8,402 nt of DNA from IMG/VR virus record IMGVR_UViG_2660238548_000022; one strand, given 5' to 3'. Of the stretch, positions 3,001 through 8,402 are shown piece after piece (the first letter of the stretch is position 1; each line of letters starts with the position of its first letter). The position numbers were made by a program. The stretch comes from a virus (taxonomy: Duplodnaviria > Heunggongvirae > Uroviricota > Caudoviricetes).

Positions 3001-6000
3001 GGGGTGCGTCATGCTTAAAACCTTCCGCGTTTTTTCCCGTGCTGTTAACAAGCGCGGCTATACCGTTGGCATCACGCAGAACGTGAAGGCCGTTAATATG
3101 CAAGCGGCGATTGATTCAGTAATCAGTAATTCCGGTAAAGCAGGTTTATCACATGTAATTATTGCAGCAGTACATGAATTAAAAGGGGGGGCATTAATGA
3201 AGGAAATTACATTACACGAAGCCGCTGAACGTGCGCACCAGACAGAAATTATTTGCCGACTTCTTGAGGTGTACCCTAATAAATTAAATGATGGTGATAT
3301 ATCCGCATTAGCTGGCCTTCTGGCAAAACTTTCTGGAAGTGTTGCGCTGTGGTTAATTGATGAGAGATTTAAACGCTATGAACAATAACAAACGCGTAAT
3401 TTGCGAATTGAATGAACTCACACAAAGCGCAATATCTTACAACAATGCCGTAAGTGAGATTATTAACGTCTGGTTTGAATCGCTGACAAATTGCGAGCGT
3501 GACGAGTCAACGACAAGATTAACCTTTGCCATTTCTGAATTACTGAATATTTCCACCAGCAAAATAGAGAGCATATCAGAGAAGATTAACGGCTTATCAG
3601 GTCACGCTATCGGAGAATAAAAATAATGAAACTTAAATATTCTGGCTTAACTGCCAGCGGCAAAACTCGCACTAAATTCATGTGCGGGGATATTTACCGC
3701 GATAAGTACGGCGGCACGGTAATGATTAAGGGCGTGGAGGAACGGCGCGTAACTTACCGCCGTGAAGGCTACGAATATGATTGCGTTATGCCTGTTTATC
3801 AGTTCAACCGTGATTTTTCTCTGGTACAGGCAGCGCCCCGCAGTAAGCCAACCAGCAGGGAGAAAGCACGCGCCAATATTCAGGAAATAAAAAAGATGCT
3901 TAACGTATTCAGGGGTAAAAAATGAAACTGGCACCGAACGTAAAAAAACAGCCACGCGGAATAAAACACAAAGACACAGAGGTGATTATTTTCGCGGGTA
4001 GTGATGCGTGGGCACATGCAAAACAGTGGCAGGAGCAGGACGGCCCCGCATCCGGCGATAATGTGCCTCCTGTGTGGCTTGGGCCAAATCAGCTTGCCGA
4101 ACTTTATGCACTGCAAATTGTTCCTGATGGAAAAAAACGCGTAAGGCTGTACCAGGCAGGAGAACTGGACTTGGTGGAGACCAAAAAGATTGGTCAGAAG
4201 CTGGCGGCGGCAGGCGTACAGGATGCAAAATTTTACCCCGAAGGAATGCACGGTCAGAAGTGTGAAAACTGGCGGCGCTATCTGAATGCTGAGCGTGAAA
4301 ATATTGCCGCAGGGCTTACCATGCCGGAGCAGAAAAATACGCAACTGGCACAAATGGCAGACAGTGAGCGCGCCCAGCTGCTTGCCGATCGCTTTGATGG
4401 CGTTTGCGTACATCCTGAAAGTGAAATCGTTCACGTATGGCGCGGCGGGGTATGGTGTCCGGTCAGCACAATGGAACTTAGCCGCGAAATGGTGGCGATC
4501 TATTCAGAGCACAGGGCCACTTTCAGCAAGCGCGTAATCAATAACGCCGTGGAAGCGTTAAAAGTTATTGCCGAACCAATGGGCGAGCCGTCCTGCGATT
4601 TGCTGCCGTTCGCCAATGGTGCGCTTGACCTGAAAACGGGGGAATTTTCCCCGCACACGCCGGAGAACTGGATCACCACGCACAACGGCATTGAGTACAC
4701 GCCACCAGCACCTGGGGAGAACATTCGCGACAACGCGCCAAACTTTCACAAATGGCTTGATCACGCAGCCGGAAAAGACCCGCGCAAGATGATGCGTATA
4801 TGTGCCGCGCTGTACATGATTATGGCGAACCGGTACGACTGGCAGATGTTTATTGAGGCCACCGGAGACGGCGGTAGCGGTAAAAGTACATTCACGCACA
4901 TAGCCAGCCTTCTGGCAGGGAAACAGAACACGGTAAGCGCTGAAATGACATCGCTTGATGATGCTGGTGGACGTGCGCAGGTTGTCGGGAGTCGTCTTAT
5001 CGTCCTGGCTGACCAACCGAAATATACAGGCGAAGGAACGGGCATCAAGAAAATCACGGGCGGCGACCCCGTCGAAATTAACCCGAAATATGAGAAGCGA
5101 TTCACGACGGTAATAAGGGCGGTGGTACTGGCGACCAACAACAACCCGATGATATTCACCGAGCGGGCCGGAGGTGTGTCACGTCGTCGGGTTATTTTCC
5201 GGTTCGACAACATTGTAAGGGAGGACGAAAAAGACAAGGATTTGCCGGAGAAGGTCGCGGCTGAAATCCCCGTAATTATACGCCGCTTGCTGGCTAATTT
5301 TGCCGACCCTGAAAAGGCACGGGCTTTACTCCTGGAACAGCGCGATGGTGATGAAGCACTGGCGATAAAGCAACAGACAGATCCGGTTATTGAGTTTTGC
5401 CAGTTCCTGAATTTTCTGGAGGAAGCACGCGGCCTGATGATGGGTGGCGGTGGCGATTCCGTGAAGTACACGACCAGAAACAGCCTTTACCGCGTCTATC
5501 TGGCGTTTATGGCATACGCAGGAAGAAGCAAGCCGCTAAACGTGGCTGAGTTCAGCAAGGCCATGAAGCCAGCGGCAAAAGTTTACGGACATGAATATAT
5601 TACGCGGAGAGTTAAGGGAGTAACGCAGACCAACGCAATTACAACTGATGATTGCGACGCGTTTTTATAATTTTAGACAAAAGCCATCTACCTCTTCTAC
5701 CTAAAGAAAATAAATATACATTATTCAATATGATAAGTGGGTAGAGGGGCAGGTAGAAGGCAAATAAAAGCCCTCTACACCCTCCACCATGATTAAGGTC
5801 GTTTGTGAGGGGCGGGTAGAGGATGGGTAGAGGGCCACGAAAGCCCTCTACCCATCTGAAAGCCGCGCCATTACTGACCTGAAAGATGATTGGGTAGAGA
5901 GGTAGAGGAGGTGCACCACAACCTAAAACTTTTTAAACACGAGGGTAAAAATAAAAATGCACACATCAGGAAAATTGAACAATCAGAAGAAACCACATAA

Positions 6001-8402
6001 CCGCGCCATTGACCTTACAGAGCACTGGCTGAGGGTGGCGATAAAAATCATCGACCGCCACACACGGGAAGGATACGCGAAGGAGAATCCCGAACTGATA
6101 AGCGCATTCATGACCACAGCGGCGGCAAACTTTGCCACGCTGACAGAACGGGAGATTGCCGAAGCGGAACAGGTAACAACCATCAACGTTAAAAGCGCTG
6201 GAGAATAACCGAAGTAGTGAACACATAGCCGGAGCAATCCGGCTTTTTTTCGATCTCGCATATCTTAAAAAATGGTTGATTGATTATAATCTATCGAAAA
6301 TACTGATTATTAGATGATAAGCATCAGGAGGAAACAAAGTGGAAGAGATAAAGCAAAGCGCTACCGTGATGATTGATCACGAGATCCTAAACGAGCTTAA
6401 AAAACTTCAATTCGATGTTATTCGCCGGATGAATGAAGCTGGTATATACGGCAGAGCCGCCACGCCAACAATAGGTCATCTTGCACGTGTGCTGTTACGC
6501 GAAAGACTGGGCATTGCAACAGGTGAGGCATAACAAATGGCTATCACAGAACGCGAGGCAAGCATCATTAAGGCCATTGGCGAGGAAACAAGAGACACCA
6601 TAGCGCCATTGATGGAAAAGATCGCAGAGCTTGAGACACGAATAAACAAGCTGAGTAATGAAGTTGAAGGCCTGATCTCGTTACTCGGTGAGCAATGACA
6701 TGGGGGGGGAGTGTTCCGGCCGGAAAGTCGATCACCCTGGACACCGCCCCCCGTCTCATTCGTAGAAAATTTTGCTTTTCAAAAAAGTTACACGAAAAGT
6801 TACACCCCCTCAAAACGAGGTTTTTGCATGGCATTAACGACCAAAAAAAAGCGGTTTGCTGATGCGTTATCAAGGGGCGCAAATCCCACGGAAGCCGCTA
6901 TACATGCGGGATACAGCGAAAAGACCGCAAGGGTTAAAGGCTGGCAGCTATCCAACGATCCTGAGGTGAAAAAGTATCTTAAGGCTGTAACTTCTGATGT
7001 AACTTTTCAGGTTACAAAACCGAAAAAAGTTACAAAGAAAGTTACCGAAAAAGTTACACCGGAACGGGCATCAATTAACACCATTGAGATGATGGATAAC
7101 GGCCTACCCGACCCCATCAAAGCAATGGGCAGGATACTGATTGACAACATGGACACAGATCCAAAACTGGCTTTAGATGCCGCGTTTAAGCTGGCCCAGT
7201 TCACCCACCGCAAGATCGGCAGCATTGGGAAAAAAGAGGTTAAAAAACTCAATGCCGCTAGTGTCTACTCAAATCGGTTCCCCATCCCTAAGCCACCAAC
7301 AGACTTAAAACACTGAGGTAGCGAACTATGAGCGAATACATCACAGACCCTATTGATGTACTCACGGAAATCATGAACGACAAGCAGCAGTCGACCGAAA
7401 TACGGTTACAGGCCGCCGCTGTTCTGATGCCATATTTTCACGAAACACTAAACCCGTGCTTCCAGGAGGAGGAAGAAGATGATCTGTAAAAACATGAAAG
7501 GCGTGTCAGCAGTTCGCGCCGCCAGCGTGCTGGCATCGTGTAAATTTAGCCATGCTGACGCTATAGAGATGACGAAAAGAAATGATCCGGCAGTATCGAA
7601 ATTTCTTGAAAAATCCATCGTCAACAGAATGACTACGGATAACATGCCGTCGCTGGTGGCAGAGCCGATAGTAAGAGAGCTTGGCGAGTATATTTTTTCG
7701 CAGTCTGTACCAGGCAAGCTAATCAGCAGCGCGCTTAATCTTCCGTTTGGCGCAAAATTGCATTCAATATCAGGCAAGGGTAGTAAATGGCTTAAAGAAG
7801 CCGAAGAAATCCCTGTCAAAGAGGGAGAAGTAAACGAAAGTGCGCTAAAATTGTGCAAACTTGGCGCTATTGTGATGCTGAATAACGAGCTAATCAAATT
7901 TAGCACCCCTGGTACAAATTCAGCGATCAGAGACTTGATCACATCGGAATCGGTGAAAGAAATAGATAAAAAATTTCTTTCCAGTGATCAGGAGGTGGCT
8001 GGCGTATCCCCTGAGGGCGTGCTTAATGGTGCTGATGAGGCCGAAAACTTCATAGAGATTTTCAAAAAGCACATAGCGAACGGTAACACGCTTTCCACGT
8101 CGTCGCTAATATTGCCCGTAGAAAACGCCTTACAGCTTACTGATGCTGAGTTCTGGCAGATAGAGCTTTTGAGAATACCGGTAATTGTGAGCGAACAGGC
8201 GGATCGCATGATGCTGATAGACGCTCAAAAGCTGATTATTAACGTTGAAGCCACGGTTATAACCCCAACTGATGAGGCGGTAATAAAAACCGAATCAGGG
8301 GCGGTTAGCCTTTTCCAGAATGACGCTACAGCGTTCAGGGCAATCACCTATTGCGGATGGCAAAAACTCGATAAGGCCGTCACCGTTCTGGCGAAAAGCT
8401 GA

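Follow-up and report, generated by a model that had tools for sequence, protein, structure and literature searches.

What do the three small genes that lie between the replication origin and the packaging genes of a phage satellite do, and do they work as one? We asked this of 8,402 nucleotides (nt) of a Caudoviricetes virus record, IMGVR_UViG_2660238548_000022; this stretch, hereafter the window, opens with the start codon of a tyrosine integrase gene and closes with the stop codon of a gene for a capsid homologue. An earlier note on this DNA had taken genes A, B and C for one insulated module whose position suggested packaging redirection or interference with a helper phage. All three are present on the + strand between the origin and the packaging genes: A encodes 83 amino acids (aa) from an ATG start (5957..6208), B 64 aa from a GTG start (6339..6533) and C 53 aa (6537..6698). 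That they are real genes is indicated by the low ratio of nonsynonymous to synonymous substitution rates (dN/dS) in gene B, by relatives of B and C at matching positions and by the placement of A in the phage protein family phrog_1231. They do not form one module. The explanation that we favor, at about an even chance, is that they belong to two separate units, with A in the replication block and B and C opening a late operon in which B would be a regulator and C would be derived from a helper-phage protein.

The two units meet at an intrinsic terminator (6227..6250, + strand), whose GC-rich stem of 7 bp (6227-6244) leads into a run of seven T. The clean terminator previously said to follow gene A was recovered by a terminator scan and folds with a free energy (dG) of −12.5 kcal/mol. 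A hairpin with a T-run occurs at the equivalent position, ahead of the gene B homologue, in 9 of 9 related loci, and in EcCICFT073, the prototype Gram-negative phage-inducible chromosomal island (PICI), the hairpin that precedes the gene B-family gene is identical to the one at 6227-6250. At this terminator the replication block gives way to the late cassette, and A is split from B. The separation from the replication genes that had been claimed for all three genes therefore holds for B and C, which lie behind a strong, position-conserved terminator, but not for A, which is on the replication side. The loci compared here are labeled L025 (EcCICFT073), L003 and L004 (EcCICFT073-type islands), L006 (a Hafnia island), L042 (Shiga toxin 2 (Stx2) phage 1717), and L020, L022 and L023 (related satellites, of which L022 lacks gene C and L023 has the most diverged member of the gene C family).

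Gene A is the last gene of a replication/origin block that the window has in common with EcCICFT073, and it assorts independently of B and C. Its protein is 88% identical to the product of the first post-origin gene of EcCICFT073 (dN/dS 0.30), and the DNA homology between the window and EcCICFT073 stops at the last codons of A. In EC4115, PKF11 and CFT073 the gene A homologue lies directly after the origin, overlapped by ssb and then followed by perC, and B and C are not present there. DNA resembling gene A was found in 1613 of 5426 complete E. coli genomes; for B and C the number of genomes with coverage is about 220. When E. coli copies of the cassette are compared, identity ranges from 73 to 100% for gene A and from 91 to 100% for the segment from B and C through terS to the capsid gene, and four more distant satellite lineages with the cassette lack gene A. 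Because A assorts independently, the homology ends at its stop and it is missing where the cassette occurs elsewhere, we conclude that A closes the replication block. Since it overlaps the ssb gene in EcCICFT073-type islands, A is probably replication-associated. The protein is a predicted helical hairpin (AlphaFold2 pLDDT 69) with 159 related protein clusters, and searches of Pfam, NCBIfam, PADLOC and the sequences of solved structures yielded only the match to phrog_1231 (E 6e-45). Across 15 distinct gene A alleles the last ∼22 codons (∼6125-6195) are almost invariant, even synonymously, and the first 40 codons vary freely, which suggests either a constraint at the DNA level or uniformity produced by recombination at the module junction.

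Gene B, the first gene of the late operon, encodes a predicted ribbon-helix-helix (RHH) DNA-binding protein. Structure prediction and search had been proposed as a check in the earlier note; the AlphaFold2 model (pLDDT 84) gave an RHH-like topology, while Foldseek and the sequence libraries were silent, so that the fold assignment comes from the prediction. The model has an extended N-terminal segment and helices at residues 14-33 and 45-57, a strand-helix-helix order contained within ∼45 residues; the fold ends near residue 57 of 64, leaving 7 residues. The GTG start is consistent with the family, whose members have 8-13 mostly basic residues ahead of a conserved S-V-M-(I/L)-D strand. Relatives 34-48% identical occupy the same position in other genera, and a comparison with a 91%-identical island gave a dN/dS of 0.08 over 25 nucleotide differences; a tblastn search of gene B against phages found no match. 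In the same comparison the nucleotide difference was 13% in gene B and 11.5% in the DNA upstream of it, and 1-3% in C, terS and the capsid gene.

The gene B family is rare and its position is constant, always the first gene after the post-origin hairpin and T-run, as seen in the window, the Hafnia island, with a very diverged RHH-like protein (hhalign probability only 23%), and three metagenomic satellites. Six satellite lineages, EcCICFT073 among them, have a member of the family at the start of the late operon; in EcCICFT073 it is the 68-aa gene just upstream of the capsid gene (hhalign 94.8%, E 5e-8). In the five HK97-type lineages the family is accompanied by a capsid homologue. A predicted DNA-binding fold at the head of an operon points to regulation rather than packaging redirection, and gene B is most likely the DNA-binding regulator of the late operon.

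The DNA between the terminator and gene B offers a candidate site for such a regulator. The palindrome GATTATAATC (6282..6291, unstranded) occurs as a single exact copy within the window and includes the hexamer TATAAT (6285-6290), making it a candidate −10 element and operator. EcCICFT073-type islands also carry one palindrome copy per island at the equivalent position, in EcCICFT073 itself as TGATTATAATCA ahead of the 68-aa gene. In two such islands the outer bases differ symmetrically (ATGATTATAATCAT vs CTGATTATAATCAG), as would be expected if a symmetric dimer recognized the site. Gene B is preceded by the consensus Shine-Dalgarno sequence AGGAGG previously pointed out (6326..6331, + strand), 7 nt upstream of the GTG; the variant island has AGGAG. 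The TATAAT promoter claimed alongside it is confirmed as a hexamer and not as a promoter: a sigma-70 scan of 5600-7400 found no promoter, any −35 hexamer spaced by 16-18 nt agrees with TTGACA in at most about 3 of 6 positions, and the closest variant island reads GATAAT instead of TATAAT. By eye, repeats with an ATCTA or TGCAA core suggested an operator common to all lineages, but they proved too inconsistent and were rejected. The region upstream of gene B had no relative among phages and thus gave no sign of a borrowed phage late promoter. In EcCICFT073 (L025 11405-11445), L003 and L004 a strong hairpin with a T-run (dG −13 to −17 kcal/mol) sits between the TATAAT palindrome and the RHH gene and could be a leader terminator or attenuator; at 6303-6327 the window has only a weak, T-less remnant of it.

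Several observations count against gene B as an RHH regulator acting at this palindrome. The inter-helix loop of 11 residues, although conserved, is longer than is usual for RHH proteins. Pfam and NCBIfam searches of gene B and six relatives, up to an E value of 10, returned no curated RHH family; sequence searches of solved structures, including a profile search, gave nothing relevant, and Foldseek of the model against the PDB found nothing. The sigma-70 scan weighs on the same side, as does the closest variant island, whose palindrome is broken (TTAATGATAATC) though its gene B differs by only four residues.

If the prediction is right, an RHH dimer of gene B would bind the stretch that separates the terminator from the gene B start codon and so set the expression of an operon made up of the terminator, the promoter/operator region, B, C, a cos (cohesive-end) site, terS, a 53-aa gene and the capsid homologue. 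The terminator would halt transcription coming from the alpA/replication operon, the best candidate binding site would be the palindrome GATTATAATC overlapping the −10 hexamer, and the most likely mode would be negative autoregulation, as in Arc or CopG. With Arc (phage P22) and CopG (plasmid pMV158) gene B shares the predicted fold, the status of a small first-gene product and, as a candidate, a palindrome overlapping a promoter. It differs from them in lacking sequence similarity and in its conserved 11-residue loop, and its DNA binding is a prediction.

An alternative is that gene B is an architectural packaging factor acting at cos, comparable to TraM at oriT, with C bridging to the portal or terminase. 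We regard this as unlikely. Gene B stays at the head of the operon though cos lies 1.4-2.6 kb away in L022 and L020, its family also accompanies the lambda-type capsid module of EcCICFT073, and it is present in L022, which is without gene C.

Gene C starts 3 nt past the gene B stop codon, has its own GAGG ribosome-binding site and encodes a leucine zipper. The coiled coil noticed previously is borne out by a regular heptad over residues 22-50, with I22, L25, I29, L32, I36, L39, V43, L46 and L50 at the a/d positions; the only sequence matches among solved structures were GCN4 zippers, in keeping with a coiled coil and otherwise counted as noise. Relatives 42-56% identical occupy the same position in other genera, and the C-terminus EVEGLISLLGE[Q/K] is invariant. 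A metagenome scan with gene C returned mostly near-identical E. coli copies. In L022, the sole satellite without gene C, its place is taken by a helper-type portal gene.

We propose from sequence comparison that gene C derives from the N-terminal segment of a helper post-portal protein, gp60. Residues 3-42 of gene C align with the first 45 residues of gp60 of phage 1717 with 44% identity over 45 aa (hhalign probability 80%, E 1.4e-5), and in a shuffle test z was 6.3-8.9 for three of four members of the gene C family. gp60 is a 407-aa repeat-rich protein encoded directly after the portal gene and often annotated as "portal protein B" or as portal-fused. It belongs to phrog_1289 and phrog_8767, both of which gene C matched weakly in an unbiased scan. 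The gp60 N-terminus was found in 92 phage records, a set with almost the same make-up as the 80 records that carry the cos-like stretch described below. In phage 1717 (L042 6661-7884) gp60 begins with a coiled coil, contains four to five repeats of ∼50 aa (IPVPRDGRDYDP...) and matches CBM_5_12 weakly in its C-terminal region, and by its sequence it looks like a fiber.

Weighing against this derivation, the similarity is short (25-45 residues), the shuffle test was not significant for the most diverged member, L023 (z 1.5), no counterpart of the EVEGLISLLGE[Q/K] terminus was found in gp60, and no solved-structure relatives of gp60 were found. The link emerged only in the targeted comparison; tblastn of gene C against all phages gave insignificant matches only. 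If it holds, the dimeric zipper of gene C would occupy the gp60 docking site on the helper portal or neck, and its effect would be either to channel parts of the helper head to the satellite or to obstruct a component of the helper.

A scaffold-like role of gene C with the capsid homologue remains a serious rival reading, although we consider it improbable. Here gene C would be a small scaffold or size factor, like CpmB from the pathogenicity islands of Staphylococcus aureus (SaPIs) or like the delta domain missing from the capsid homologue. Gene C occurs in 5 of 6 HK97-type capsid lineages and in no EcCICFT073-type islands, its product is predicted to be short, helical and dimeric and ends in an invariant C-terminal tail, and the capsid homologue matches only the mature part (302-636) of the helper protease-delta-capsid fusion. 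Yet gene C has no detectable similarity to the helper delta-like region and does resemble gp60, and L022 carries the capsid homologue without gene C.

A feature overlooked in the earlier note lies between gene C and terS. The element at 6702..6781 (+ strand) opens 3 nt past the gene C stop codon, six bases past the last sense codon, with a G8 run (6702-6709) followed by CGATC, CTGGACACCGCCCCCCGTCTCA and GTAGAAAA. A stretch without annotation in 80 phage records, nearly all of them Stx1- or Stx2-converting and related lambdoid phages, matches it at 79-81% identity; in phage 1717 the stretch lies between the HNH endonuclease gene and terS. The HK97 genome termini fall within the same layout, a G-run, ∼49 nt and then GACCGCCGCC. 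In HK97-type packaging regions the order is HNH, cos, terS, and because of this layout the element is, judged by sequence, a copy of the helper-phage cos site. Conservation of the element extends across all five satellite lineages and exceeds that of the proteins. Among E. coli copies the G-run measures 7, 8, 9, 10 or 11 nt; its length is 13 nt in the Hafnia island, 9 nt in HK97 and 10 nt in phage 1717, a variation that could be real homopolymer instability or assembly error.

Two direct repeats AAAAGTTACAC of repeat family D12 follow the cos element (6783..6805, + strand) and are a candidate cosB for the island small terminase subunit (TerS). We compared post-cos repeats in the window (6783-6805), L020 (9880-10029), L023 (2960-3056) and L026 (6090-6200). 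Satellites with their own terS have GTTACAC-type repeats after cos, as in the window, and the phage and satellites without terS have GTTAAC-type repeats, which suggests changed binding sites for the island TerS beside a shared cleavage site. The terS gene itself (6828..7316, + strand) matches PF03592 (E 1e-10) and phrog_641 (E 1.5e-43), and its product is 46% identical to the TerS of phage 1717; TerS scans of reference genomes found no usable relatives. The product of the 53-aa gene that follows (7328..7489, + strand) resembles TerS at residues ∼89-125, with an E value of 3.5e-7 against positions 89-125 of the phrog_641 profile. In satellites the gene always accompanies terS and occurs only where terS is present, and its product may be a decoy for the helper TerS or large terminase subunit (TerL). 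The 307-aa capsid homologue (7479..8402, + strand; PF05065, E 1.3e-6) has an HK97 fold without the protease/delta region and aligns to residues 302-636 of gp58, the protease-capsid fusion of phage 1717. From the cos, TerS, capsid and gp60 similarities we infer that the helpers are HK97-like (HNH-cos) lambdoid phages of enterohemorrhagic E. coli (EHEC), including Stx-converting phages. Late cassettes of related satellites carry additional cargo: a 798-aa coiled-coil-rich protein between gene C and cos in L020 (7407-9803), a protein like lambda tail-assembly protein I (PF06805) in L023 (4038-4622) and a 193-aa protein, membrane-associated by appearance, in the Hafnia island (L006 10242-10823).

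These results bear on the proposal that A, B and C act jointly as one insulated packaging-redirection or helper-interference module, a reading that we now consider very improbable. All three genes do lie between the origin and terS, and according to PMC6739421 this region of Gram-positive islands often carries interference genes. Against joint action, the terminator lies between A and B, A assorts independently and is missing from four cassette-bearing lineages, and gene B has a predicted DNA-binding fold. PMC6739421 also reports that post-origin genes of EcCICFT073, among which we assume the homologues of A and B were included, were cloned and expressed singly, and that only c1503 (rppA) blocked phage lambda, with fewer plaques. 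What survives of the proposal is the likeness of the gene C N-terminus to a helper head-module protein; the predicted fold of gene B points to regulation, and the helper-like cos and the island TerS, outside the three genes, account better for packaging redirection.

That B and C are instead a toxin-antitoxin or abortive-infection pair, with B the RHH antitoxin and C the small toxin, is scarcely credible. Gene B lacks a C-terminal toxin-binding extension, gene C is a plain zipper without a toxin-family match in Pfam or NCBIfam, PADLOC gives no match for B and C, and both L022 and the EcCICFT073-type islands carry B in the absence of C; B and C did not qualify as a type II toxin-antitoxin system. 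The least probable reading, that gene C is an antitermination factor, draws on the RefSeq name "antitermination protein NusG" carried by several NCBI records (e.g. WP_097562041.1) and on the terminator-like hairpin in the late-operon leader of EcCICFT073-type islands, but Pfam and NCBIfam searches of gene C found no NusG NGN or KOW domain, its 53 aa compare with roughly 180 aa for NusG, and the terminator scan finds no terminator downstream of the proposed promoter in the window. The name is unsupported and should not spread in annotation.

The island that contains these genes is a Gram-negative PICI, a phage satellite, and its layout matches that described in PMC6092414. As in the PICIs defined by Fillol-Salom 2018, int (1-1224) lies at one end and is followed by alpA in the same orientation (2086-2310; PF05930, E 2e-16), the primase (3922-5670, with D5_N and DUF5906 domains) is directly followed by the iteron origin (5680-5910), and the element is small (∼8.4 kb from int to the capsid stop) and without lysis or tail genes. 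The gene order is int, a 257-aa gene, alpA, several small genes and a DUF4222 gene, then the D5/DUF5906 primase-helicase, the origin (∼5680-5910), A, B and C, and finally terS, the 53-aa gene and the capsid homologue, the last three being the only head or packaging genes. The island is not a new kind of system; its new parts are set within a known kind of satellite. An E. coli O157:H7 copy 99.7% identical to the window is located between yljB/cspD and clpS. Megablast of the whole window against phage records found no match, scanning 5600-7000 against Rfam produced nothing beyond chance matches below threshold, and our literature search found nothing on this island type or its small genes.

The replication origin (5680..5910, unstranded) consists of iterons, GGGTAGAGG and variants in both orientations (repeat families D1-D3, inverted repeats I1 and I7). 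It is homologous to the origin region of EcCICFT073, with a different iteron sequence. The 257-aa gene (1221-1994) overlaps the end of int and has a GC content of 0.31-0.35, vs ∼0.48 for the island; no family or defense-system match was found for it, and genes of like size and position are present in related satellites.

The left half of the island is common with EcCICFT073 (PMC6092414, PMC6739421): each contains int, alpA, DUF4222, a primase of the D5 type and an origin with iterons, then the gene A homologue, the same terminator hairpin and a gene B-family RHH gene opening the head/packaging operon. EcCICFT073 has ssb-perC after A, capsid and decoration genes like lambda gpE/gpD, Rpp and a lambda-type cos, and unlike the window it is without gene C, terS and the HK97-type capsid homologue. 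The right half works like cos islands of the SaPIbov5 type, with the addition of its own TerS. Cos islands of this type, with the capsid homologue Ccm, were reportedly described by Quiles-Puchalt in 2014 and by Carpena in 2016. They are treated further by Hawkins 2021 (PMC8569155). The window shares with them a copy of the helper cos, a probable helper among the HNH-dependent cos phages and an HK97-fold capsid homologue; SaPIbov5 is Gram-positive and without sequence homology to the window, which adds its own TerS, the altered cos-adjacent repeats, B and C.

Two further systems invite comparison. SaPI operon I is a LexA-controlled packaging operon with ptiA/ptiM, cpmA/cpmB, ppi and terS, and is cited as such in the cloning study of EcCICFT073. 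Like it, the window has a late operon, probably under separate control, in which several small proteins that would be aimed at helper functions are combined with terS; it differs in having no homology and an RHH gene as the first gene, and no LexA box was seen on reading the sequence at 6250-6340. Rpp, a protein of PICIs, reproduces a portion of the helper TerS; it is comparable in concept to gene C, which may likewise descend from, or imitate, a stretch of a helper packaging or head protein. Gene C differs in resembling the N-terminus of another helper protein, gp60, a resemblance in sequence only. None of A, B and C could be identified as Rpp: sequence searches of solved structures gave no match of this kind, and there was no BLAST match to the putative RppA of EcCICFT073, a 144-aa ORF (L025:13660-14094) chosen by position and size and not confirmed.

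Taken jointly, these elements allow a wider reading, which we offer tentatively and as clearly less probable than the two-unit organization. Satellites of this type would parasitize HK97-like (HNH-cos) lambdoid prophages of EHEC, among which are many Stx1- and Stx2-converting phages, through a shared cosN and altered TerS-binding repeats fitted to the island TerS, with gene B as the master switch and gene C as a decoy of the attachment segment of a portal-associated fiber that would divert or disable completion of helper heads. Gene B would then be a previously unrecognized late-operon switch common to EcCICFT073-type PICIs and those with a capsid homologue. Neither RHH proteins of PICIs nor the exploitation of Stx phages by PICIs turned up in our literature search.

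Late-gene switching in Gram-negative PICIs was not described in the literature searched, and gene B is a concrete candidate for the regulator. A gene of this predicted RHH type, behind a conserved terminator, heads the late operon both in EcCICFT073-type lineages and in those with a capsid homologue. The cos copy, TerS and the gp60-like start of gene C all point to HK97-like lambdoid helpers of EHEC, including Stx-converting phages. If the wider reading given above is true, an island present in some O157:H7 strains would modulate the amount of Stx phage that is released.

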